DNA from: an uncultured Clostridia bacterium
GTDB taxonomy: Bacteria; Bacillota; Clostridia; Christensenellales; UBA1242
Length of the DNA: 64,000 nt
Direction: 5' to 3'
Assembly (NCBI GenBank): GCA_944376825.1
Contig: CALWDY010000012.1
Coordinates: 522 to 64,521 of the forward strand
Positions within the stretch are counted from its first letter, which is position 1. Every line of letters begins with the position of its first letter. The translations under genes were made by a program, and so were the position numbers. Below are positions 4,002 to 62,837 of this stretch, in pieces. The notes under the pieces are model-generated. The model was not told the origin of the DNA. It saw only the letters and a program-made list of their open reading frames with translations, and did not search any database.

Positions 4002-4752
4002 TTATAAATTTTTTCCTTTTTCTTCGAGATAAGCTGAATAATTACAATTATATAATGACATTTCCCTATCATCAATTTCTAATATTTTTTCTGGTATTTT
4101 ATCTAAAAAATATAAATCGTGAAACACTTTAATCTTTGCCACATAAAAAGTTTTAATATAATTTTTTAACCATTCTATTCTTTCTATGTCAAAATTATTT
4201 GTGGATTCATCTAGCAACATTAAATTTGGTCTGGTTATCAAAATTATTGCAGTTTTTTACCCACCACTTAAATTATTATAAAACATAAATAAAGTGTTTT
4301 TACTATATTTTAACCCATCCACAACTGCATTAATATTAACATTTATATAACAGCATTTGAAAAAATCTTTCAGTAATATTGCAAAATTTTTCTAATGTTT
4401 TATTATTCTTTTTAGGTAAACTTTCATTTAATAGGTTTTGCAAAGAATTTAATATTACTTCCTTTTATTAAGGTATTTAAACGCATCTTTTAATATATCA
4501 TAAATACATCTAATTCTCCTTTTACTTAAACTAACTTGATTAAGATATACTACTTTTGCATTCTTTTTATTTTTATGCTTCTTGAATCATATTTTTCTAA
4601 ACATATAATCATTATAAGAAAAGTTGATTTTTAAATATTCATTAGGTCTAACTATTTACAGAACCTCTTCTTCATTTTAAAAAAAATGAGTCATCTTTAT
4701 AAAGCTGTTTAGATCCAAAATCTTTTCAAACCTATCAACTTTAAAAAATCAT
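4002..4752 (-). pseudogene. Decayed partial copy of an ABC-F ATPase (first nucleotide-binding domain only)
   Basis: Conceptual translation across several frames matches the intact ABC-F at 15565..17205. Examples are DFGSKQLYKDDSFFLK vs DFGYGKLFENVSFSLN, IYDILKDAF vs VYDILKDSF, and NNLSGG*KT vs NKLSGGEKT. The Walker A is destroyed (DLMNI*KST). Multiple stops and frameshifts; truncated after NBD1. Confidence 0.85.
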
Positions 4753-4814: not shown

Positions 4815-6200
4815 TTATTTGGCTAAGATTTTTGTAACCAATTTCCTCATATTATATATCCCATTTATTAGATCTTTTTCAGATACTGCAAAATTAATTC
4901 TTGCAACCAACTGTTCTTTTTGGGGCCACATAATAGATTGACCACACAATACTTTAATTAAAGCATCATTGTAAAAAATATCAAATAATTCATAATCGTT
5001 GGTTATTTTTTTATCACCAATGGTTTTCCCTTTTATCATACTAAAATCAAGGACAGCGAAAAAACCAGACTGAACATATTGTGGTTCTACCGCAAATTGA
5101 ATATCAAGAGTATTATAAAGTAAATCCTTGTATTTTGTAGGACCTAATATTTTATAGACTTTCCTTTTTGTTCTAGTATTATATGTTCTATTCAGTAGCG
5201 CTATTAATAACTCAAGTCTATTTTTGTATAATTTATTTAATTTTGTAAAATATTTTTCATAATATTTTTTATTTTTAACAGAAAAAGCCCCTGTAAGTGA
5301 AGATATTGTTAATAAAGAAACAGAATCTAAAGTATGAAAAATAATATCTCTCATTTTTTTTATTACATCATTATTTGCAATCAAAATACCACTTCTTAAT
5401 GCAGCCAAACCAAAACATTTAGATAAACCTAATAATGAAATTATATTATTGGACTCAAAATTTGCCATAGGAATAGGATTGTAATTAGAAAAACAAATAT
5501 CCCTATATATTAAATCATCTATTATAAAAAAATTATATTTTTTAGCTAATTGAGCTAAATTTTTCAACACATCAATTTCTTGCACCCCCAAAACTTTTCC
5601 TGTTGGATTATGTGGATTGCAATTATAAAAAAATTTAACTCTCCCTTGTTTGCCTTGCGACTGCATAGATGAATTATACTTTTTTATTAATTTCTCTATT
5701 TCTTCTATATTAAATATCCAATTTTCTTTTTGTTCTAAATTTATTGTTAAAACTGTAAAACCATGTCTTTCAGGTGTAAAATCAAAAAAACCATAATTAG
5801 GACATGGGATAATTATTGCATCTCCGCATTGACCTAATGCATCAAAAACAAGGTTATACCCGTGCGTCGTTGAATAAGTAAAAACAATATTATTGTCTGC
5901 CACATTGTTATTGTAACCGATAGACTTTAAATATTTTTTTATTATAGCTTTATCATTTAAAGAACCACAAGTCCCCATGTATTGATATAAATCTTTTCTT
6001 TTTAAACATTTTTTAATCTCTTTTACACTAAACTTATAAGGTTTAAACTTGATTGGATCACCGGTCATTAAATTATATTCTTTGCGATTTAACATATATT
6101 TTTTTTGACACATGAAATCATACATAGTTGAAACCAACTTTAATTTTTCATTTTTACAATTTTCTATACTTAAAACCGGAACATCGTTGTTAATTTCCAT
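4815..6200 (-). CDS. PLP-dependent class I/II aminotransferase-fold enzyme (aminotransferase or C-S lyase); last gene of the RiPP-like operon
   Basis: NCNPHNPTG motif and LSKCFGLAALRSG (PLP-lysine region). ATG 6200 is preceded by TAGGTG at 6-nt spacing. An in-frame GTG at 6209 abuts the stop of the upstream gene. Confidence 0.75.
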   Translation of the reverse strand: MEINNDVPVLSIENCKNEKLKLVSTMYDFMCQKKYMLNRKEYNLMTGDPIKFKPYKFSVKEIKKCLKRKDLYQYMGTCGSLNDKAIIKKYLKSIGYNNNVADNNIVFTYSTTHGYNLVFDALGQCGDAIIIPCPNYGFFDFTPERHGFTVLTINLEQKENWIFNIEEIEKLIKKYNSSMQSQGKQGRVKFFYNCNPHNPTGKVLGVQEIDVLKNLAQLAKKYNFFIIDDLIYRDICFSNYNPIPMANFESNNIISLLGLSKCFGLAALRSGILIANNDVIKKMRDIIFHTLDSVSLLTISSLTGAFSVKNKKYYEKYFTKLNKLYKNRLELLIALLNRTYNTRTKRKVYKILGPTKYKDLLYNTLDIQFAVEPQYVQSGFFAVLDFSMIKGKTIGDKKITNDYELFDIFYNDALIKVLCGQSIMWPQKEQLVARINFAVSEKDLINGIYNMRKLVTKILAK

Positions 6201-6209
6201 ACTAAACAC

Positions 6210-7463
6210 CTATAAATCATAATAATTTAATTTTTTTAATTCAAAGTTATTAAGGACATCGCTTTTTAAATAAATATTTTTTAATTTTAATAAAGGTAAA
6301 ATTTTATTTTGTTGGGATTGCATTCTACACAGCTTTAATAAGTATTTTCTATTTCCTGAGCTTTCATATAATTGCGATACATTTCTATATTCCTTACCAA
6401 AAACCAGTTTAAAATATTTAGAAGTGTAAAATATCCCATTTGAATTGCCACCCACATAATTAATTTCCAAATTTATGTCATTATCGTTAGGCTCTGCCAA
6501 CCTGCAACTATGCAATTTTACAACATATCCAAACTTTTCTAATTGTTTTTTTATTTGTAATGCTATAATTTTGTTTGGGTAAAACTCACAATATCCCATT
6601 TTAATTGAACTATTAAAAATTTTCTTCTGCATATTATTATGTTTGTCTGTTTTTTTTGAAGATTTCTGTAAGAGAAAATTGTCTTTTATTTCATAAATGT
6701 AATTTACTTTTTCCAATATTTTAATTTTATCTATACAACCAAAAATGTTTTTTCTCCACATGTCAAATTTATCATCAAAATATTTCTTATTAAATTTTAA
6801 AACAAAAAACAAATTACTGTCATTTATCGATACATTATAATTATTAATTTTGTATAACGGAAAAGTTGTGGGATTGGTCATATCTATTTTACCAGAAACA
6901 AAATCTTTTATTTCTTTTCTAGTGCTTTTTGAAACATTAAATATAATTATGTCATTATTGATATTTTTTAATTTTTTACGATAATATGTATTGCGTTTCA
7001 ATGTAATTTCTTTACGTGTACTTTTTTGTATATAATATGGACCACTTGTCAATCTATTCTTAAAGGGAGAAACATACATTAATGTTAATTTTTCCAAAAA
7101 AAACACATCTTTATTAAACAATTCAATTTGCAATTTATCGTTTATACAAGAAACATTCTTAATGTTTTCAAACAAAAATTTTGCATAACATCTATTATTT
7201 AATATATAATTTAAAGCTTCACAATAATCTTTAGCACTAACCTTTTGACCATCTTGAAAATATAAATCACTTCGTAAAACAAATTCAAAAAACAAATCTT
7301 TTTTATTAATAAATGTCTTACAAGCGTTTGGTATAATTCGGTTCCGTTTATCAAATTTGACCAAAGGATCCATTATCGCTGAATATATCAACACTCCGCT
7401 GTAATCATTTACTAAAAAAGGATTATTAGATAATGGTAATGAATCAACACATATTTTACTCAT
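6210..7463 (-). CDS. Family-5 solute-binding-protein (OppA/DppA/NikA-type) homolog lacking any signal peptide or lipobox
   Basis: SBP_bac_5-like pattern: YSAIMDPLVKFDKRNRIIPNACKTF, LRSDLYFQDGQKVSAKDY, TSGPYYIQ...ITLKRNTYY, VSGKIDMT. The N-terminus MSKICVDSLPLSNNPF has no hydrophobic h-region. Start overlaps the upstream stop (ATGA). Confidence 0.6.
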   Translation of the reverse strand: MSKICVDSLPLSNNPFLVNDYSGVLIYSAIMDPLVKFDKRNRIIPNACKTFINKKDLFFEFVLRSDLYFQDGQKVSAKDYCEALNYILNNRCYAKFLFENIKNVSCINDKLQIELFNKDVFFLEKLTLMYVSPFKNRLTSGPYYIQKSTRKEITLKRNTYYRKKLKNINNDIIIFNVSKSTRKEIKDFVSGKIDMTNPTTFPLYKINNYNVSINDSNLFFVLKFNKKYFDDKFDMWRKNIFGCIDKIKILEKVNYIYEIKDNFLLQKSSKKTDKHNNMQKKIFNSSIKMGYCEFYPNKIIALQIKKQLEKFGYVVKLHSCRLAEPNDNDINLEINYVGGNSNGIFYTSKYFKLVFGKEYRNVSQLYESSGNRKYLLKLCRMQSQQNKILPLLKLKNIYLKSDVLNNFELKKLNYYDL

Positions 7464-8413
7464 CTTTCGTTTTCCTTAAACTTAACAATCAATTCTCTAT
7501 TTAAAGACTTTACACTTTCAAATCTATCCAATAAAAAAAATATAATATCCCAAGCCATATATGTTGCTATTAAAGTATTGGTTACTCCAAAAGAACTTTT
7601 GCAAGGAAATATGTATTTAATTTTGCTTAAAGCTCTATCTAGTTTAGTTATGTAATTATTTTTATCATTGTTGTTATTAAACAGTGGACCATAATGTCCT
7701 TCAAAAACACCAACACCCCCGAAAATTACTGGTGTATTGTACTTTTTAGATGCTTTTAATATTATTTTTTGTATAAATAATGGTGGAGTATCTGCAGCAT
7801 TAACAATTATGTCTATATGATTTTTATCAAGTATTTCAATCAAATCTTCTTCTTTTGATATAAATTTGTTATAACACATAACGCTTGCCTCATTTGAAAC
7901 AGATTTTATGTATTTTTTTAATACTTTTGTCTTTAACTGTCCTATTTCCTTCATTTTGTATACAAATTGCCTATTTAAATTAGAAATACTTATCTTATCA
8001 AAATCTATAATTACATATTTTTTAATGCCAACAGCAAGAAGTTGATTTATTATCTCCGAACAAATCCCCCCAGCACCAACAAAAAGAACTGTTTTTTCTT
8101 GCAATAATGATATATTATTAATATTATCAAAATTATGCATAAACAATTCAGTTCGTTCTGTACTGGTTTGAAACGATTTTATTATATTTTCTGGCGCCTC
8201 TTCCAACACTTCATTATTTACCAAAAACTCAAATGTTTTTTGAGAAAAATCTTTATCATCAATGATAGAAAAAGATTTTGAAAGATTGACCAACAGATTA
8301 TAATCTTTTTCAGGTAAACAATGCCTAATTGTTACTTGATTGTTTTCAAATAAAATTGTATTATCGCCCATAAATAACATCTTTTTTGCATCATTAAAAA
8401 TATATTTACTCAT
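7460..8413 (-). CDS. E1/ThiF/MoeB-like adenylyltransferase with a ~100-aa N-terminal extension (peptide-clamp/RRE-like)
   Basis: VLFVGAGGICSEIINQLLAVGIKKYVIIDFDKISISNLNRQF is the Rossmann GxGGxG plus NLNRQ signature, and NAADTP is present. The N-terminal part is predicted beta-rich (TILFENNQVTIRH). 8-nt overlap with the upstream gene. Confidence 0.75.
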   Translation of the reverse strand: MSKYIFNDAKKMLFMGDNTILFENNQVTIRHCLPEKDYNLLVNLSKSFSIIDDKDFSQKTFEFLVNNEVLEEAPENIIKSFQTSTERTELFMHNFDNINNISLLQEKTVLFVGAGGICSEIINQLLAVGIKKYVIIDFDKISISNLNRQFVYKMKEIGQLKTKVLKKYIKSVSNEASVMCYNKFISKEEDLIEILDKNHIDIIVNAADTPPLFIQKIILKASKKYNTPVIFGGVGVFEGHYGPLFNNNNDKNNYITKLDRALSKIKYIFPCKSSFGVTNTLIATYMAWDIIFFLLDRFESVKSLNRELIVKFKENER

Positions 8414-9674
8414 TGCTAACCACCCTAAGCATATTATCTTTTACAAGTAGAATAAAAATTTCTTTAATAGATTTTAGTTCACTAAAATCATATTTTAAAA
8501 GATTTTGTTCAAATGTTTTGTCAAATGATATTTTTTTTATAAGATTATAGGCTTCTTGGTCGATGATAACATTTTTACATCCTATTAAAACATATTTATC
8601 CTTGTTTTTAACTATTTTTGCAATGCCTGTTTTAAAATGAAATTTTTTTATTTTGTCCCAACTTTCTTCAATTAATTCATTTACCAAAACATCATTGCAA
8701 CCAGATGCAGTTTTTCCTATTTCGCACTTACATCCACCAATACATCTTACAAATTTTGCACAATTTTTACATATAAGTGAGCAATTTCTTATATGAGATT
8801 TTAAAATTTCGTTATTATTTTCCCATATCTCTTGCAACGAAGAAGAATATAAATTGCCCAATATATCAGTAGAATTTCCACAAATTGTCACATCACCATT
8901 TGTTTCAATCGCACAAGATTCTATACCTGCGTTACAGGGAACAACATCATCTAAATCGATATTATTGCTATAACAGCCAACGGAACAATGTCCAAAATTA
9001 ATATAACTTTTTTCACTTCGCAATTTTTTTAAAAGCGTCAAAAGTTTGACTGCCAATTGTTTGGAATCTTTTGTTTGACCTTTTCCAATTTGAAAAACTC
9101 TTGTAACATTAAGTTTTATCCCCAAGCTTTTACAAATATTCGCTACAGATTGTAAATCCTTATAATTAGTGTTAAAATCAGTAGCAGTATAACAAATATC
9201 AATATAGATATTGGGATATGCGTTTCTCAAATATTTTATATTACTTATAACTCTTTCATAACAAGATGATTTGGTTATTGCGTTGTGAGTTTTTTCTCTA
9301 CCATGAAGAGAAATAGATATACCATTTACATAATTAAGACATTCTTTAAGATGAGGACTAGATAGCAAACAACCATTTGTTACAACACATTGGTATAAAC
9401 TTAGAGTTTTGCCGTATTTTAACAGGTCTAAAAAATTAGAATACATAAAAGGTTCTCCACCAGTATAAAAAACTCTAATTATTCCAAAATTTTTTAATTG
9501 TAATAAAAGGTCTTTTGCAAATTTAAAGTCCATTTCAATATGCTTGCTTTCACCTTGAGAACAAAATGAACAATTTAACATACAATTGTTTGTTATTTTA
9601 ACAAATACTGAAAAAGGATGTTCATTTAACAAATACTCATAATGGTTAGATAATATATTATTGTTATAAAGCAT
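8406..9674 (-). CDS. Radical SAM enzyme with a SPASM domain and a C-terminal PqqD-like (RRE-like) extension; putative peptide maturase
   Basis: CMLNCSFC (Cx3Cx2C) at residues ~31-38 and GGEPF. SPASM cysteines are CAIETNGDVTIC and CKNCAKFVRCIGGC (Cx2Cx5Cx3C). About 100 aa follow SPASM (KIVKNKDKYVLIGCKNVIIDQEAYNLIKKI). Confidence 0.85.
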   Translation of the reverse strand: MLYNNNILSNHYEYLLNEHPFSVFVKITNNCMLNCSFCSQGESKHIEMDFKFAKDLLLQLKNFGIIRVFYTGGEPFMYSNFLDLLKYGKTLSLYQCVVTNGCLLSSPHLKECLNYVNGISISLHGREKTHNAITKSSCYERVISNIKYLRNAYPNIYIDICYTATDFNTNYKDLQSVANICKSLGIKLNVTRVFQIGKGQTKDSKQLAVKLLTLLKKLRSEKSYINFGHCSVGCYSNNIDLDDVVPCNAGIESCAIETNGDVTICGNSTDILGNLYSSSLQEIWENNNEILKSHIRNCSLICKNCAKFVRCIGGCKCEIGKTASGCNDVLVNELIEESWDKIKKFHFKTGIAKIVKNKDKYVLIGCKNVIIDQEAYNLIKKISFDKTFEQNLLKYDFSELKSIKEIFILLVKDNMLRVVSNE

Positions 9675-9677
9675 AAG

Positions 9678-11585
9678 CTATCCTTTTAAAATTATATTAA
9701 GCTTTTCTATTTCTTCCCCCAAAAACACATCATAGAAAATATCTACTACATTCTCATTTTTATAATTAATATTTCTTATTTTTAACAACTCGGCAATTTC
9801 ACCATCTCTTTTTTCAAAATAATCAGGGTCCATTGCCCCCATATCCCATATTATTTGATAAGTACTATTTTTAATTTCACTTAAACACTCTAAAAACTCA
9901 CATGTCTTTTTAAGCTTTTTGCTTTTAACTTGAATTTGTTTGTTTAACAAATCATTAAAACTGATATTTTCCTTTTCCAATAATTGAATTGACTGGTTGT
10001 AACTTTCTAATAGAGTTTGGCCAAATGGAATAACTCCAACTAATAATTCATTAATTGCTGCACAATATTCTTTAATAAAAATTTTTAATAATTCATCATC
10101 GCAACTATCTAATGCCTTTACTAGTTTTTTAACAATTAAAAGAAGTTGATCTTTTATTGTTTTTAAAAAATCAGCATCTAAGTTTTTCCCCGCTTGATTG
10201 ATTTGACTATAAAATTGTAAAAATAGAGGTAATTTTTTAAACCTTTCAATTTCCATTATCCACAAATACTTGTTATTGTCTTCACTATATTTTGGACACA
10301 TTCCAAAATGCAGTCTTACAAACAACTCCAATTCTGCTCTATTATCTCCATCCAATTTTTCATTTGAATGAATTATAATCCCCTCATATGTAAGCTCTAT
10401 AAATACTTTTTGATCCCTTAATGAATATGCAAAATAATTTTCAAAACAATCCAAATCACTATAATTAAAATGAAATTTTTTGTTTAAATAAATATCATTA
10501 TTGTTAATTTTAATAATTCCGTGGATTGTATCAAGTTCAATTTTATCTCCCGTTTTAACTTTTTTTGTAATATCTTTGCAAGCAACAACACAAGGTATAT
10601 TTAATTCCCTAGCCAAAATTGCAGCATGACATAAAACAGAACCCGACTCCGTGATAATAGCCGATGCTTTTTTCATTGCTGGCAAAAAATATGTTTCAGT
10701 TGCCTGAGATATTAAAATGCTACCTTCTGGGAATTTATTAATTAATTTAACCATATCCTCATAAGGTAGATCAAAGTCTATGAAATAAGCGTCCCCATTG
10801 ACATTTCCATTTGTTATGATTATTCCTTGCCCTTCACTGTTAGAATATTCTTTATTAATATAAATTGGCTTTGTTATTGGCCTCATTTGAGTAATAAATG
10901 TACGATTTTCATTATCCACGCACCACTCAATATCAACGCCCTTAGGATAAGTATTGTTAATTTTGTTTATAATTGTAATAAGTTGTTGAATATTTTCCAA
11001 ATTTATAAAATTTCCGCTATACTCACAATAATTTTCTTCAAATTTACCATTTATAAATGGGACAACCATTTTAAAAGAATTATAAATTCCTGAAACTAAT
11101 TTATCTCCCTCCCCCTCAACAATTTCAATCATAGCAGCCCGTTGCCCATTGACATTTAGAGCATTTGTAAAACACACACCAGAATATACTGGTTCAATCA
11201 TTTCCTGAATAATAATACTCATTTCAACTTTATTATTAGTATATGATTTAACGACTTCTGAAGTGGAACTTTTAAGTACAAACAAAATTGCTTCCTTAAT
11301 TTTAAAATAATCATTGTCAACATTTAGCATTGTTTTAAATATACCCGCAAAAGAATTTAATTCGCCGTCTTCAACATCTGCAGAAGATCTAACTGCAAAT
11401 TTTTGTGATTTTGAAAAATGAGAAATAAAATCTTTTATTGCAATCTCATCCACCTTTTCATTTTTAAAACTTTTTACAATTATTCCTTTAGGAATTCTAA
11501 TATTCATTTTTGAAAGCAAGCTTAACCCATAAGCCTTACCACCGCACAAATTCGAACAAGTATCATATGTATATATCACAAGCAC
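9678..11585 (-). CDS. PPDK/PEP-synthase-like phosphotransferase: ATP-grasp PPDK_N, then a phosphohistidine swivel domain, then an unknown ~270-aa helical C-terminal domain
   Basis: CGGKAYGLSLL, FAVRSSADVEDGELNSFAGIF, IIQEMIEPVYSGVCFT and TQMRPIT (PPDK_N-like). ITESGSVLCHAAILARELNIPCVV is the PEP-utilizer mobile-domain His motif. The start is uncertain: GTG at 11585 or GTG at 11579, the latter better spaced from AGAGGTG. Confidence 0.75.
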   Translation of the reverse strand: MLVIYTYDTCSNLCGGKAYGLSLLSKMNIRIPKGIIVKSFKNEKVDEIAIKDFISHFSKSQKFAVRSSADVEDGELNSFAGIFKTMLNVDNDYFKIKEAILFVLKSSTSEVVKSYTNNKVEMSIIIQEMIEPVYSGVCFTNALNVNGQRAAMIEIVEGEGDKLVSGIYNSFKMVVPFINGKFEENYCEYSGNFINLENIQQLITIINKINNTYPKGVDIEWCVDNENRTFITQMRPITKPIYINKEYSNSEGQGIIITNGNVNGDAYFIDFDLPYEDMVKLINKFPEGSILISQATETYFLPAMKKASAIITESGSVLCHAAILARELNIPCVVACKDITKKVKTGDKIELDTIHGIIKINNNDIYLNKKFHFNYSDLDCFENYFAYSLRDQKVFIELTYEGIIIHSNEKLDGDNRAELELFVRLHFGMCPKYSEDNNKYLWIMEIERFKKLPLFLQFYSQINQAGKNLDADFLKTIKDQLLLIVKKLVKALDSCDDELLKIFIKEYCAAINELLVGVIPFGQTLLESYNQSIQLLEKENISFNDLLNKQIQVKSKKLKKTCEFLECLSEIKNSTYQIIWDMGAMDPDYFEKRDGEIAELLKIRNINYKNENVVDIFYDVFLGEEIEKLNIILKG

Positions 11586-11617
11586 ACCTCTTTATATATT
11601 TAAATTTTAATGTAAAT

Positions 11618-11646
11618 AATACCAAGCACAAAAAGTGCTTGGTATT
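11618..11646 (-). terminator. Strong intercistronic hairpin between the precursor ORF and the first enzyme gene (partial terminator, attenuator or mRNA-stabilising stem)
   Basis: Perfect 12-bp stem AATACCAAGCAC / GTGCTTGGTATT with a 5-nt loop. It starts 10 nt after the peptide stop codon. The downstream tract AUUUACAUU is only moderately U-rich. Confidence 0.55.
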
Positions 11647-11655
11647 ATACTTTTA

Positions 11656-11718
11656 TTAGCTTCTGTGAACACAGCATTCCGCTAATAATTCTTCGTCGGT
11701 CATTTCTACTTCTTTCAT
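11656..11718 (-). CDS. Unannotated 20-aa ORF, candidate RiPP precursor peptide MKEVEMTDEELLAECCVHRS
   Basis: ATG 11718 lies 7 nt downstream of a perfect AGGAGG (11726..11731); TAA stop at 11656..11658. It has its own promoter, is followed by a hairpin, and sits directly upstream of and co-directional with the rSAM/E1-like operon. Acidic N-terminal part and Cys-Cys-Val-His-Arg-Ser C-terminus. Confidence 0.7.
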   Translation of the reverse strand: MKEVEMTDEELLAECCVHRS

Positions 11719-11737: not shown

Positions 11738-11766
11738 AGTATGCAACAAATTCATTTAAATGTCAA
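11738..11766 (-). promoter_or_regulatory. Sigma-70-type promoter driving the precursor ORF and operon
   Basis: On the minus strand: TTGACA (11761..11766), a 17-nt spacer, then CATACT (11738..11743). The predicted TSS is a few nt upstream of the Shine-Dalgarno, giving a very short leader. Confidence 0.5.
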
Positions 11767-12092: not shown

Positions 12093-12311
12093 TTAATAGT
12101 TCTTTATATTTTTTGATACGGCAACAACACGTAAGTTTTTGCAGTCTTGCTTTTTTGCAAAATTCTCAATATGTTTAACAAGCAATTTCCCATAACCCCT
12201 ATCTCTGTAAATGCGACTCACATAAATCTCATCTATGTTAAAAGATTTTTCACCTTTTTCTATATATGCTTTATCTTTTGCTTCAATTTCAAAACATCCA
12301 AATGCGTATAA
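12093..12311 (-). pseudogene. GNAT acetyltransferase C-terminal remnant (no start codon)
   Basis: 72-codon stop-to-stop frame reading ...IDEIYVSRIYRDRGYGKLLVKHIENFAKKQDCKNLRVVAV..., which is GNAT motif A (R-x-x-G-x-G). The N-terminal half and the start are missing. Confidence 0.55.
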
Positions 12312-12392: not shown

Positions 12393-13685
12393 TTATTTTT
12401 TTATAATTTTATTAAAATCTTTAACAATTTTCAACATACGCTCGTCTAAATACTTTAATCCTTGTTTTTCAATTTCTTTTGGAACACCATAGTAAGCGCC
12501 TGCTATTGCTCCCGTTATTGCCCCCATTGTGTCTGTATCTCCACCCCAAGAAATAACTTTTCTTATTGCATCTTCATATGAATTTGATACCAAAAACGCA
12601 AAAATGCTTTGCGGAACAGACTGTTGACACGAGCCCTCAAATTTGTAATTTTCAAACAAATCGTTTTCATCATAGTTCATTGGATAATAATTTTCGTCAA
12701 TATACTTTCCAATTTCTTCTTTACTACATCCGTTTAATGCCATCCACTCAGCCACCGCTGTTGCTTCTGCTCCTTTAATTCCTTCTGGATGATTGTGTGT
12801 TATCTCAGTTACTTTTCTTGATAACTCTTTTACTTCTTCTAAATTTTTTGCAACATAAGAGATTGCACTTATTCTCATTGCACTCCCATTACCAAAAGAA
12901 TTATAAGGTTTAGTGCTACCCGAAATTAACCACTTATAAAACATTCCACCATAACCTGCTGTGTTATAATAATTTTTACCTATTTCATGCATATTCACAA
13001 TTGTTATTTTGTCAAGATTTGTGTAATCTCCCTTGCAGTCAATTAAACTTTGTGCTATTGCACAAGTCATAACAGTGTCATCAGTAAAACGACAATAATT
13101 ATTGAATAATGGAAAATCTTTTAATTTTAAATTCATAAATTCATAAGGAGAGCCAACTATATCTCCAATTATGGTACCCATAAGCACCAATCTATTATCT
13201 TTAAGAACAAATTCTTCTGGTTTGGCTTCGTCAATACTCAATAAATTTGCTTCTGTAACATTTTTTGTTGCTATGTAGTTGTTTATATGTTCCAAATCTA
13301 TTTTTGATGAAAACCCACAATTCTCGTGAAATAATCTTGAACCTAAATTATAAATTCTAATATGGCAACTTATTGAGTTAAAACCTTTTAAATATTTAAA
13401 AATATATTCATAAATTTTTGTTCCTACGCCTTCTCTTTGGTAATTTGTATTTACAGCAATTTGTGCAATATACAAATCACCAATTCGATATAAATCTTTT
13501 TTTAAATAAGCATAACCAATTATATTTTTATTTAATCGTGCAACAACAAGATAATCGTATGGCAAAATGCCCTCATTTTCAAGTGTTCCCCCATTTTTTG
13601 CTAAATTTTCATTATTTATTTTTAATATTTGATTTTTGTCATTTTCATTTAAACTTTTTAATGTTTCAATTATATATTTTTCCAT
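12393..13685 (-). CDS. Fusion protein: N-terminal GNAT acetyltransferase domain plus C-terminal ADP-ribosylglycohydrolase (ARH/DraG-family) domain
   Basis: GNAT part: LYIAQIAVNTNYQREGVGTKIYEYI. ARH part: GDIVGSPYEF, FTDDTVMT, GNGSAMRISA, GGDTDTMGAITGAIAGAYYG. ATG 13685 (MEKYII) preferred over the upstream start at 13748. Confidence 0.7.
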   Translation of the reverse strand: MEKYIIETLKSLNENDKNQILKINNENLAKNGGTLENEGILPYDYLVVARLNKNIIGYAYLKKDLYRIGDLYIAQIAVNTNYQREGVGTKIYEYIFKYLKGFNSISCHIRIYNLGSRLFHENCGFSSKIDLEHINNYIATKNVTEANLLSIDEAKPEEFVLKDNRLVLMGTIIGDIVGSPYEFMNLKLKDFPLFNNYCRFTDDTVMTCAIAQSLIDCKGDYTNLDKITIVNMHEIGKNYYNTAGYGGMFYKWLISGSTKPYNSFGNGSAMRISAISYVAKNLEEVKELSRKVTEITHNHPEGIKGAEATAVAEWMALNGCSKEEIGKYIDENYYPMNYDENDLFENYKFEGSCQQSVPQSIFAFLVSNSYEDAIRKVISWGGDTDTMGAITGAIAGAYYGVPKEIEKQGLKYLDERMLKIVKDFNKIIKK

Positions 13686-14073
13686 ATTTTTCCTTTTATT
13701 TTTTTGTTTGCAAACATACAATGGTAAATTGAAATATATTAGATACAAATGTTAATTTTTTTGTTTATAAATATTTTTATTATTGTTATCTTTTACTATT
13801 AAAAATTTTATTTATGTATAATTCTGTTGCAAATTTATAATAAAATTTTTACTGTAACTAGATCTACATTCAACGATATTATCTACCAATATGATAGTGT
13901 ACCATACTTATACATTTTGAGGATGAACACACTGAGATGTCTTCCATTTTCAAACAGCAAACAGTTGCATTTTTTATAAATTCATTTAATAAATTTTCTT
14001 TTAAATTACAAAAACTTGATTTCCCTAAAACATATTTAATAATGTATTTCATAAACAAAGCCTCTAATATCAT

Positions 14074-15564: not shown

Positions 15565-17205
15565 ATGATTATATTAGATGTAAATAAATTAAGTAAAGAT
15601 TTTGGATATGGAAAACTTTTTGAAAATGTTTCTTTCTCACTTAACGAAGGAGAATCTATTTCTATTGTAGGGCCAAATGGCTGTGGAAAGTCCACTTTGT
15701 TAAAAATGATTGCGGGAATTGAAAAAATAGACAACGGAACGGTAAGCATAAAAAAAGATGCAAAAGTCGCATATCTTGACCAGGTCGGTTCAAGTTATGA
15801 AGATGATAGATGTGTTTATGATATTTTAAAAGATTCTTTTGTTGAATTAAACGAAATGGAAAAGCGATTAAACATGTTACAAGAACAATTAAGTCAACAA
15901 AGTTTAAGCAACGATTATGACACAATTCTTAAGAAATATTGCAACTTGATAGAAAAATTTTCTATGCTTGGCGGTTATGATATTGACACAAATATTAACA
16001 TGGTTGCCGAAGGGTTAAAAATTAATAAAACAATATTAAATCAAAGTTATAACAAATTAAGTGGCGGTGAAAAAACTTTGGTGCAACTTGCAAAATCACT
16101 TTTGATAAGACCTGATTTGCTTTTGCTTGATGAACCAACAAACCACTTAGATATAGAAAGAATAGAATGGTTGGAAAAGTATATAAAGTCGTTTAAAGGT
16201 GCAACAGTTATTATTTCTCACGATAGATATTTTTTAGATAAAATGTCCAACAAAATATTGTCATTAGAGTTTGGCACTCCAAAGGTTTATTGCACCAATT
16301 ACACTGGGTATTTAAAAGAAAAAGAATTGGAATTTGAAAAACAATTAACAGCTTATAAAAATCAACAGCAACAAATAGAGAGATTTGAAAAACAAATTAA
16401 ATATTTTGCTCAAATTGGAATGGCAAAGAACAGTTCTGCCATGTGTGATAGAGCCCACACCCTGCAAACTCAATTAGATAGATTGAAAAAAAATGCAATA
16501 AAAAAACCAAAGCAAACAGCAAACATAAATGTTGCATTTGATGAAGTTAAAAAATCAAGTCAAGTGATAATTGATGCAAAAAATTTAAAAACACAAACTC
16601 CAAGTAAAAATATAATTTTAGACAACATAAATATAAAAATTTGTTCAAAAGAAAGAGTCGCCATTATTGGAAATAACGGAAGTGGCAAATCTACTTTTAT
16701 TAAAATAGTTCTTAAAGCAAACGAACTGCCATTTGAAGGAGAAATTGTTGTTGGTCCAAGTGTAAAGATTGGATACTTACCTCAAATAATAAAATTTACA
16801 AACGAAAACTTTACTCTTTTAGAATATTTTAAAAATTCATTAGGTGTAGACGAACAAAAAGCTCGACAAATTTTAGCAAGTTTCCATTTTTACAAAGAAG
16901 ATGTCAATAAAAAGGTTAAAAACCTATCAGGTGGTGAAAAAATTAAGGTAAAATTAGCAGAACTTTTACAACAAAAAATAAACACCTTGATATTTGATGA
17001 ACCAACAAACCACATCGACATTCCAACAAAAGAAGTTTTGGAAAATGCACTTGATGAATTTAAAGGTACTTTGATATTTGTTAGTCATGATAGATATTTT
17101 ATTAACAAGTTTGCAGATAAAACAATAGAGTTTAAAAACGGCAAAACAACAACATATGTTGGAAACTATGATTTTTATAAACAAGAAAAAAACAAAAAAC
17201 TATAA
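15565..17205 (+). CDS. ABC-F family ATPase (two ABC domains, no transmembrane domain; translation-factor or antibiotic-resistance type)
   Basis: Two Walker A motifs (GPNGCGKST, GNNGSGKST), two signatures (LSGGEKT, LSGGEKI), two Walker B motifs (LLLLDEPTNHLD, TLIFDEPTNHID) and a Q/K-rich interdomain linker. AAGGAG lies 6 nt before the ATG. Confidence 0.9.
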   Translation: MIILDVNKLSKDFGYGKLFENVSFSLNEGESISIVGPNGCGKSTLLKMIAGIEKIDNGTVSIKKDAKVAYLDQVGSSYEDDRCVYDILKDSFVELNEMEKRLNMLQEQLSQQSLSNDYDTILKKYCNLIEKFSMLGGYDIDTNINMVAEGLKINKTILNQSYNKLSGGEKTLVQLAKSLLIRPDLLLLDEPTNHLDIERIEWLEKYIKSFKGATVIISHDRYFLDKMSNKILSLEFGTPKVYCTNYTGYLKEKELEFEKQLTAYKNQQQQIERFEKQIKYFAQIGMAKNSSAMCDRAHTLQTQLDRLKKNAIKKPKQTANINVAFDEVKKSSQVIIDAKNLKTQTPSKNIILDNINIKICSKERVAIIGNNGSGKSTFIKIVLKANELPFEGEIVVGPSVKIGYLPQIIKFTNENFTLLEYFKNSLGVDEQKARQILASFHFYKEDVNKKVKNLSGGEKIKVKLAELLQQKINTLIFDEPTNHIDIPTKEVLENALDEFKGTLIFVSHDRYFINKFADKTIEFKNGKTTTYVGNYDFYKQEKNKKL

Positions 17206-25301: not shown

Positions 25302-25379
25302 GGTGGTTGTAGCGTAGATGGTTATCGCGCCAGATTGTGGCTCTGGAGATCATGGGTTCGAATCCCATCAATCACCCCA
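25302..25379 (+). tRNA. tRNA-His (anticodon GTG) with a genomically encoded G-1 and CCA end
   Basis: Cloverleaf read by eye. Acceptor GTGGTTG/CAATCAC, anticodon loop TTGTGGC (GTG at 25337..25339), T-arm ATGGG-TTCGAAT-CCCAT. An extra 5' G opposes discriminator C73. Terminal CCA present. Confidence 0.9.
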
Positions 25380-27044: not shown

Positions 27045-27200
27045 TTTGCCTCCTTTTTAGATTTGTATGTTTTAATTAAAAAATCCTTTGGCCAAAGTAA
27101 AGCCGAAAGGATTTAATACCAATCTAAACTTCGCCTCGGCAAGCACAATAAATTGTTTACGAAAAATCACTTGCTGTCTTTGGAAAAGGACAATATTTAA
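27045..27200 (-). promoter_or_regulatory. Probable L10 (rplJ) autoregulatory leader RNA
   Basis: GC-enriched, stem-rich 5' region. Examples are AAATCCTTTCGGC...GCCAAAGGATTT and CAGCAAGTG...CTTGCCGAGGCGAAG. It sits directly upstream of rplJ, as in Firmicutes L10 leaders. The family assignment is not verifiable by eye. Confidence 0.4.
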
Positions 27201-27249
27201 TTAACGGACTGATAATATCACAAATTTTTTAACATGTCAACGCTTTTGT

Positions 27250-62763: not shown

Positions 62764-62837
62764 TGGCAGGGGTGGAAGGAATCGAACCCTCCTCTGGAGT
62801 TTTGGAGACTCTCATTCTACCGATGAACTACACCCCT
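62764..62837 (-). tRNA. tRNA-Trp (anticodon CCA), CCA end encoded
   Basis: Acceptor AGGGGTG/CACCCCT and anticodon loop CTCCAAA (CCA = plus-strand TGG at 62803..62805). T-arm GAGGG-TTCGATT-CCTTC. Confidence 0.9.

Follow-up and report, generated by a model that had tools for sequence, protein, structure and literature searches.

A swivel-histidine dikinase with a new third domain, a candidate tailoring enzyme of a short ribosomal peptide from uncultured gut Bacillota

What would a phosphoenolpyruvate (PEP) synthase-like enzyme phosphorylate when its gene stands among genes for peptide maturation? The question is raised by a dikinase-like gene at positions 9678..11585 of a 64,000-nucleotide stretch of DNA (the window) from an uncultured Clostridia bacterium (contig CALWDY010000012.1 of assembly GCA_944376825.1, positions 522 to 64,521). 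The encoded protein joins a known engine, an ATP-grasp domain and a phospho-His swivel domain, to a new domain in the position of an acceptor domain, and does so in a new biological context. We tentatively favour, at slightly less than even confidence, the view that it is a tailoring enzyme of a peptide that is made on the ribosome and modified after translation (a RiPP) and phosphorylates the C-terminal tail of the peptide encoded next to it.

An initial annotation of this DNA had placed the gene at 9678-11585 and given no strand. The open reading frame (ORF; 635 residues at its maximum) stands, on the minus strand; a plus-strand reading is ruled out by a translation full of stops. The real start is likely the in-frame GTG at 11579, which gives a protein of 633 residues, because this codon lies 7 nt after a GAGG and the start of a 94%-identical homologue (P0001) matches there. 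Residues ~1-250 (10836..11585, minus strand) make up the ATP-grasp nucleotide-binding domain, which matches Pfam PPDK_N (PF01326) at 101.2 bits (cut-off 27) and carries GGK15-17, RSS66-68, ED72-73, D218/E220 and Q233/R235, all invariant in 21-25 family members. The swivel domain follows at residues ~255-360 (10506..10823, minus strand), and its residues 285-356 match PEP-utilizers (PF00391) over the full model length (1-72/72) at 78.8 bits against a cut-off of 23.1. The motif ESGSVLCHAAILARELNIPCVV is present and its His, residue 320 (codon 10626-10628), is invariant in both family alignments (25 and 21 members). The ATP-grasp motifs and the retained swivel His that the initial annotation had reported are thus both confirmed. 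Judged by its sequence, the protein is a member of the PEP-utilising dikinase superfamily, with both the grasp and the phospho-His features, and its engine looks active, with all the ATP-grasp residues and the swivel His kept.

Structural comparison gave the same picture of the N-terminal two domains. The full-length AlphaFold2 model, built with the family alignment, has a predicted local distance difference test score (pLDDT) of 85, and in Foldseek searches it matched PPDK, RPH and PpsA through these two domains with E values of 1e-12 to 1e-15, as well as HpeI (9goj). A PDB sequence search aligned the swivel domain with that of PpsA. The NCBIfam models for PpsA, the RPH-like 'PEP synthase', PigC and RedH align to the grasp and swivel segments only, and the scores miss their cut-offs by a factor of 4 to 10. 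In the PpsA model (798 positions) the swivel segment matches positions 290-463, in the RPH and PigC models the very C-terminal end. The domain order is therefore that of PpsA (grasp, swivel, third domain), and the third domain therefore occupies the position of the PpsA acceptor domain, the pyruvate-binding barrel.

Tested for the defining features of PpsA/PPDK, RPH and PigC, the dikinase lacks them and is therefore none of these enzymes. With PpsA and PPDK it shares the two engine domains, their order and the conserved nucleotide-binding and His motifs, but the C-terminal PEP/pyruvate TIM barrel of those enzymes (PF02896) is absent and replaced by an unrelated 274-residue sheet-plus-helix domain, and the scores are far too low (160.7 against 598 for NF005057; 152.4 against 739.75 for TIGR01418). 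RPH and PigC/RedH/HapC likewise have a dikinase engine retargeted to non-metabolic acceptors by exchange of the third domain, and they resemble the dikinase partially, in sequence and fold, in the grasp and swivel parts. In RPH and PigC, however, the substrate domain lies between grasp and swivel and the swivel is C-terminal, whereas here the swivel is central, and their acceptors are small molecules, with neither enzyme linked to a ribosomal peptide. RPH itself was rejected on its NCBIfam score (NF041857, 104.8 against 999), the central swivel and the lack of a Foldseek match between the C-terminal domain and 5hv1/5fbt; PigC/RedH was rejected on a score of 120 against 1300 (NF052631), with only the grasp and swivel segments aligning.

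The new C-terminal domain comprises residues 362-635 (274 residues; 9681..10502, minus strand). It had been described initially as ~270 residues of helical sequence with no recognisable motif; the lack of a match holds, and 'helical' holds for the most part, since a three-stranded sheet precedes ~9 helices in the AlphaFold2 model of the isolated domain (pLDDT 92, predicted TM-score 0.89). Neither the single sequence nor a 20-sequence profile gave a significant match in Pfam, NCBIfam or PDB sequences. The best PDB sequence match, to a TatD hydrolase (E 0.065 over 85 residues), was judged to be due to chance. The domain matched none of the PADLOC models. Foldseek searches with the isolated domain returned best E values of 0.13 (PDB) and 0.12 (BFVD) with TM-scores below 0.3, the best of these non-significant matches being to CorA and coiled-coil-like helices; the RPH structures 5hv1 and 5fbt, which are in the library, were not matched. 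The novelty of the domain, proposed in the initial annotation, thus holds against solved and viral-predicted folds, and the small-molecule-binding domain that the annotation had named as the alternative did not appear, because the rifampin-binding domain of RPH gave no match. The early order of the domain, three strands and then helices, recalls a PqqD-type RiPP recognition element (RRE); the Foldseek top list for the domain contains no RRE. Comparison with the clamp region of the ThiF protein of the same cluster gave no profile similarity.

A profile of the C-terminal domain searched against 1.84 billion representative proteins gave 89 hits. Every full-length hit is a protein of 600-700 residues with the domain at ~360-640, and the remaining hits are fragments; on this evidence the domain does not occur except as third module of this dikinase. 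It is under purifying selection (ratio of nonsynonymous to synonymous substitution rates, dN/dS, 0.15-0.3), and its invariant or near-invariant residues are E397, R424, K439, Y440, W442, E445, R448, E506, G522, Y589, R593 and Y618. R424 and R448 are kept in every member linked to a peptide ending in [HQ]R[SC] and are replaced (T/E and N) in the clade linked to GR[LW]Y peptides (type C, below), a pattern compatible with a C-terminal domain that reads the peptide tail. A clade of orphan dikinases (L110/L111; L numbers denote the loci of relatives) departs further, with W442S and R593M.

The peptide in question is encoded 76 bases upstream of the dikinase gene on the same strand. Its precursor-like gene, read from the sequence (11656..11718, minus strand), encodes MKEVEMTDEELLAECCVHRS (20 residues plus stop) and has an AGGAGG 7 nt before its ATG. 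With this ORF upstream and genes for a radical SAM/SPASM enzyme, a ThiF protein, an SBP_bac_5 protein and an aminotransferase downstream, the peptide-maturation context suggested in the initial annotation is borne out. Directly 3' of the peptide stop codon lies a stable 14-bp hairpin (11616..11648, minus strand) that is attenuator- or terminator-like; the minimum free energy of the region has a z of -4.7, and U-runs are present in the matching hairpins of L092 and L095. Upstream of the peptide gene, a consensus scan picked out a promoter-like site (TTGACA, 17 nt, CATACT; 11738..11766, minus strand; 10/12 matches), a candidate only, since such sites are not more numerous in the region than expected by chance.

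The conserved peptide gene precedes the dikinase gene in ~20 distinct loci belonging to three cluster types, which makes the apparent link to a ribosomal peptide much stronger than the initial annotation could know. Among types A, B and D, 14 distinct peptides have a variable N-terminal part, a D-x-E-L-L/A segment and the tail [H/Q]-R-[S/C]-stop, with Arg at position -2 in 14/14. The leader differs in the three type C peptides, which end in S-G-R-[L/W]-Y. All types therefore share a tail, R-x(0-1)-[S/C/Y]-COOH, whose last residue always has a nucleophilic side chain. The genes have the generic features expected of RiPP precursors: a short ORF, a variable putative leader, a conserved putative core and a place beside peptide-modifying enzymes. 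In the type A clade the last ~12 codons of the peptide gene (window 11656-11680; L014, L015, L008, L109, L130) are near-invariant even at synonymous positions, and these 3' ends could form a small UGUG/CACA hairpin; the near-invariance could reflect constraint at the nucleotide level or simply the shortness of the sequence.

A set of 5.8 billion proteins contains only ~24 clusters (90% identity) of full-length relatives of the dikinase, nearly all of them from gut metagenomes or metagenome-assembled genomes (MAGs) of uncultured Bacilli and Clostridia. Examination of ~30 distinct loci gave types A to E. Type A has the order peptide, dikinase, ThiF, fold-III pyridoxal phosphate (PLP)-dependent decarboxylase, unknown protein of 380-411 residues, SBP_bac_5 protein (SBP5) and ABC-F. 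Type B, to which the window belongs together with L092-L096, L099, L100 and L103, has peptide, dikinase, radical SAM/SPASM, ThiF, SBP5, aminotransferase and ABC-F. In type C (L004, L118, L120-L129, L132) the peptide is followed by a ryptide-like radical SAM enzyme, whose gene is overlapped by that of the dikinase, and ABC-F follows in L118. Type D (L013, L109, L116/L119/L133) consists of peptide and dikinase only, among housekeeping genes, and type E of the dikinase alone (L002/L107/L108, L012, L016, L111) or with ABC-F only (L110); in types D and E the lack of peptide or maturase genes was judged from the locus itself. The only pair constant across cluster types with different maturases is dikinase and peptide. 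The dikinase gene is the first after the precursor in types A, B and D (in type C the radical SAM gene intervenes) and is translationally coupled to the maturases. In the two-gene modules of L013 and L109 the peptide is intact and conserved (dN/dS ~0.1) with no other maturase present. L109 and L130 share 75% nucleotide identity over exactly the peptide and dikinase genes, the flanks being unrelated, and the L109 peptide gene is intact and constrained.

A dikinase of PpsA order, a new third domain, recurrent coupling to a precursor gene and a partner resembling the microcin C enzyme MccB are explained most economically by delivery of the phosphate on His320 to the peptide tail. From these features we infer the peptide as acceptor, the phosphorylated atom, the order of steps and the ribosomal target, as follows. 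ATP would pyrophosphorylate His320, and the gamma-phosphate would be lost to water or Pi. The swivel domain would then bring His~P to the C-terminal domain, which would hold the peptide tail (...C-C-V-H-R-S-COOH) and allow the phosphate to pass to it. The phosphate would most likely go to the last residue's side chain (that of Ser in this peptide, of Cys or Tyr in relatives) and less likely to the terminal carboxylate. Transfer from His~P to Ser-OH, Tyr-OH or Cys-SH is precedented in RPH, phenylphosphate synthase and the EIIB proteins of the phosphotransferase system (PTS), and RiPP kinases that act on a C-terminal Ser exist in another fold, the lasso peptide kinases. The phosphopeptide might then be processed by the MccB-like adenylyltransferase, the radical SAM/SPASM enzyme, the SBP-fold protein and the PLP enzyme, and the product might be countered at the ribosome by the cluster ABC-F; a ribosomal target is proposed because of the ABC-F only. 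The lanthipeptide-style sequence of phosphorylation and elimination that the initial annotation had put forward found no specific support, as the cluster has no cyclase or lyase and Cys or Tyr can stand at the C-terminus.

A broader version of the same proposal we regard as possible but doubtful: that the dikinase is the class-defining enzyme of an undescribed RiPP class in uncultured gut Bacillota and the first swivel-His dikinase to act on a ribosomal peptide, that its new-fold domain holds the R-x-[S/C/Y] tail while the MccB-like enzyme works on a non-Asn C-terminus, and that the product is a ribosome-directed antibiotic countered by the dedicated ABC-F. The literature searched contained no paper linking this type of enzyme to RiPPs, MccB or precursor peptides, and reviews on the ThiF-like enzymes of RiPP pathways, up to late 2025, mention no dikinase partner; the view of the initial annotation that the family has no assigned RiPP class therefore stands within that literature. 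If the peptide is the acceptor, this would be a fourth mechanistically distinct route of RiPP phosphorylation, by a phospho-His swivel that releases AMP, and the third domain would be a new protein fold for peptide recognition. It would also define a family of ~50 sequence clusters, frequent in the metagenomes of human and animal guts and automatically annotated as 'pyruvate, water dikinase', and an MccB-type enzyme would be found to act on peptides for which the microcin C reaction is impossible. The conservation of ABC-F suggests a product that targets translation, which makes the clusters candidates for a new antibiotic scaffold from uncultured gut bacteria.

Several observations weigh against peptide phosphorylation as the role of the enzyme. 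The covariation of R424/R448 with the peptide tail amounts, in these alignments, to a single phylogenetic split. No PqqD Pfam match to the dikinase was obtained in any of 20 members, and the cluster contains no phosphatase, lyase, protease or exporter that would show the fate of a phosphopeptide. In at least five lineages (L002/L107, L012, L016, L110, L111) an intact dikinase gene stands with neither peptide nor maturases, and these orphans are under the same constraint as copies within clusters, although a purely biosynthetic enzyme should be useless there. L012, a 91%-identical relative of L095, has lost the peptide gene and five downstream genes and has kept an intact dikinase (dN/dS 0.16). 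The orphan L016 compared with in-cluster L130 gives a dN/dS of 0.14 at a dS of 0.69, equal to in-cluster pairs, and L110 and L111 form an old orphan clade, also under constraint. All orphan dikinases retain the catalytic residues, and those of L012, L016 and L002 retain all the C-domain residues as well. Finally, because the clusters decay easily, the partial modules may be what is left of larger clusters and not units with a function. Of two 99%-identical contigs, L116 (at ~11795) lacks 4.8 kb that are present in L117 (6991-11814), a clean deletion that removed ThiF, the decarboxylase-methyltransferase, the unknown 400-residue gene and SBP5. L117 itself already has the decarboxylase-methyltransferase gene broken into two ORFs.

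Among the alternatives, the one that survives best, which we nevertheless consider unlikely, is that the dikinase is an RPH-type resistance or self-resistance kinase that inactivates the mature antibiotic of the cluster, or the same compound made by neighbours, at its R-x-[S/C/Y] part. It stays alive because the orphan copies, found in unrelated contexts, are under purifying selection: the catalytic and C-domain residues kept in L012, L016 and L002, the L016-L130 comparison, the survival of the dikinase in L012 and its pairing with ABC-F only in L110 are all as expected of a resistance gene. ABC-F and dikinase are, moreover, the two components common to cluster types with different maturases, and the best-known superfamily member with a non-metabolic acceptor, RPH, is described as a resistance enzyme in a passage of PMC4844700. 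Such a kinase would act beside target protection by the ABC-F. A possible variant is a prodrug: phosphorylation would keep the producer safe from an intermediate, and a dual role of this kind would reconcile the biosynthetic with the resistance evidence. In a resistance role the dikinase would be the first enzyme of RPH type aimed at a peptide antibiotic, with orphan copies already circulating in gut bacteria. On the other side, the conservation of maturase-free modules of peptide and dikinase (L109, L013) is unexpected if the substrate has to be matured first, and the position of the gene, first after the precursor and coupled to the maturases, is the usual place of a core enzyme. A single kinase would also have to recognise the products of both MccB-type and ryptide-type maturation, and we know of no RiPP immunity that works by phosphorylation.

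We think it improbable, and less probable than a resistance role, that the enzyme is a small-molecule- or carbonyl-activating dikinase, as are PigC/RedH, phenylphosphate synthase and HpeHI, with the C-terminal domain binding a non-peptide co-substrate or a released fragment. Phosphorylation would then serve as activation for a condensation, for example with a PLP-made amine or with the ThiF-adenylated C-terminus of the peptide. All characterised relatives with a replaced acceptor domain do act on small molecules, and the partial NCBIfam matches (PigC/RedH, RPH), the Foldseek match to HpeI and the lack of a detectable RRE in the dikinase agree with such a role; the PLP enzymes (an aminotransferase, or a decarboxylase with the unknown 400-residue protein) and the cytoplasmic SBP-fold protein also suggest the handling of small molecules. 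These PLP enzymes, SBP5 and ThiF are, however, absent from types C and D, where the dikinase is accompanied only by the peptide, with or without a radical SAM enzyme. The C-terminal domain matches no known small-molecule-binding domain, the PigC, RedH and RPH models score 10-fold under their cut-offs, and the domain order differs.

It is very improbable that the short ORF is a regulatory leader that controls a drug-inducible resistance operon by ribosome stalling and hairpin attenuation, as for erm, cat and ARE (antibiotic resistance) ABC-F genes. The layout would suit it, with a short ORF followed at once by a strong hairpin or terminator and then by the dikinase, in an operon that also contains resistance-type ABC-F genes, and two-gene modules of 'leader' and enzyme exist. 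But the predicted folds show the hairpin and no competing antiterminator pairing, and RiPP operons often have a terminator downstream of the precursor gene, as between mccA and mccB. The MccB-like enzyme with its peptide-clamp region and the RiPP-type radical SAM/SPASM enzyme need a peptide, for which this ORF is the only conserved candidate, and the peptides are divided into leader and core as RiPP precursors typically are. That the gene is an ordinary or degenerate PEP synthase paralogue next to the peptide by coincidence, in keeping with the label 'pyruvate, water dikinase' that automatic pipelines give its relatives, has next to no probability, as PF02896 is absent, the PpsA models give 160 bits against cut-offs of 598-740 (which effectively refutes a housekeeping PpsA) and the synteny with the peptide recurs in ~20 distinct loci.

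In layout the cluster resembles the system of microcin C (mcc), and judging from gene content it may work partly like it. Both have a short precursor gene, then a hairpin, then an MccB-like ThiF enzyme, which here aligns in the clamp region. The ThiF protein of the window (7460..8413, minus strand; 317 residues; Pfam ThiF) has an N-terminal extension of ~100 residues, and its residues 18-307 align to MccB 31-322, including the peptide-clamp region, in a single-sequence phmmer search; with the family profile MccB is the top PDB match (E 1e-29), ahead of E1 enzymes and PaaA. The region of the zinc-binding CxxC insert of MccB is gapped in the alignment, and the microcin C precursor ends in Asn whereas all 14 peptides here end in Ser or Cys; a C-terminal Asn is required for succinimide and N-P bond formation in MccB chemistry (PMC12596934). 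The window operon has no MccC-type pump and no MccF-like gene, though GNAT genes lie nearby, and the cluster adds the dikinase, radical SAM/SPASM enzyme, cytoplasmic SBP5, aminotransferase and ABC-F. In one relative a methyltransferase is fused to a PLP decarboxylase, an arrangement that we take to be reminiscent of the aminopropylation pair formed by MccD and the N-terminal domain of MccE, a link that tblastn of the fusion against plasmids did not confirm: the search returned no Escherichia coli mcc genes or MccE, only distant decarboxylases and a ThiF cluster on a Lactococcus plasmid. Fusions of the PLP decarboxylase to an N-terminal SAM methyltransferase domain occur in some type A loci (L010 3758-5401, L115 12741-14363).

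Two further RiPP systems were compared. A functional analogy is possible with the RiPP peptide kinases (the lasso peptide kinases of HPr-kinase fold and LanL/LanKC/LxmK), which phosphorylate a precursor at the expense of ATP; the lasso peptide kinases do so at a C-terminal Ser. These RiPP kinases have no relation to the dikinase in sequence or fold, the dikinase has no Pfam kinase domain, and they transfer the gamma-phosphate directly whereas the dikinase would use a phospho-His swivel and release AMP. Among the radical SAM RiPPs (RaS-RiPPs), the ryptide class (RRR subfamily) is approached by type C, in which the radical SAM enzyme has the ryptide maturase as its top NCBIfam match and the peptides end in G-R-[L/W]-Y. 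The type C enzyme is not an equivalog (207 bits against 600), and the type B cluster of the window has a different radical SAM enzyme. The class is named in a passage of PMC13361665, and the passages of that paper on ryptides mention no dikinase. The type C loci with SGR[L/W]Y peptides, ryptide-like radical SAM/SPASM enzyme and dikinase (L004 6439-9863, L120 8392-11812, L129 69-3234, and L118 1-3996 with ABC-F) are common in human gut metagenomes and apparently form a separate undescribed RiPP family.

The remaining genes of the window operon follow the dikinase gene on the minus strand in the order radical SAM/SPASM, ThiF, SBP_bac_5 and aminotransferase, with gaps of 3, -8, -4 and 0 nt. The radical SAM/SPASM enzyme (8406..9674; 422 residues; Pfam Radical_SAM and SPASM) scores below the cut-off of every NCBIfam maturase family. 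The SBP_bac_5-fold protein (6210..7463; 417 residues; Pfam), conserved in types A and B, has no signal peptide; across nine homologues the N-termini open directly with the fold, and the proteins of the window and of L006, L008, L010, L092, L095, L103 and L115 are without signal peptide or lipobox. These proteins are thus predicted to be cytoplasmic, an unusual finding inside a biosynthetic operon. The PLP-dependent class I/II aminotransferase-fold enzyme (4815..6209; 464 residues; Pfam Aminotran_1_2), conserved in type B, has a GntC-like family as its top NCBIfam match, far under the cut-off.

The window cluster is, from its sequence, partly decayed, since its ABC-F gene is a fragment only: a remnant at 4005..4346 (minus strand) corresponds to ~residues 137-256 of a 540-residue protein in a tblastn search with the L006 ABC-F, and an intact ABC-F gene occupies this position in L092-L096 and L103. 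An intact ABC-F paralogue (15565..17205, plus strand) lies 4 kb upstream of the cluster; its membership in the system is uncertain. It scores 465 bits against a cut-off of 380 for NF000355 (NCBIfam, ribosomal-protection-like), is 38% identical to the L006 cluster ABC-F, and may substitute for the decayed copy. The L006 protein itself scores 480 bits against 380, and the cluster-linked ABC-F is accordingly classed, as a prediction, as ARE-type and ribosomal-protection-like.

PADLOC models gave no match for the dikinase, SBP5 or aminotransferase and only generic E1 and viperin-fold matches for the ThiF and radical SAM proteins, and an anti-phage defence system was rejected for want of a PADLOC match. 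The region has a GC content of 24-33% throughout. A ribosomal protein L10 leader (27069-27201, minus strand), tRNA-His(GTG) (25303-25379, plus strand) and tRNA-Trp(CCA) (62764-62837, minus strand) indicate the standard genetic code and a chromosomal location.

GNAT genes are found repeatedly a short way upstream of the peptide gene, in the window and in L013 (7460-8817), L120 (7150-7800) and L012 (~9700-9920). In the window they are a GNAT fused to an ADP-ribosylglycohydrolase domain (12393-13748) and a truncated GNAT remnant (12093-12311), both on the minus strand. By likeness only, they recall MccE-type acetylation immunity. A 161-residue protein with no Pfam or NCBIfam match is encoded directly after the orphan dikinase in L002 (9832-10317), L107 (8325-8813) and L108, and elsewhere in the cluster-bearing L014 (2557-3075) and L116 (20840-21370). 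On the Lactococcus lactis plasmid NZ_CP053672.2 (L097, 31429-44061), seven hypothetical genes, one with distant similarity to the cluster decarboxylase, lie behind a ThiF gene; the group may be a further uncharacterised ThiF-type peptide cluster.

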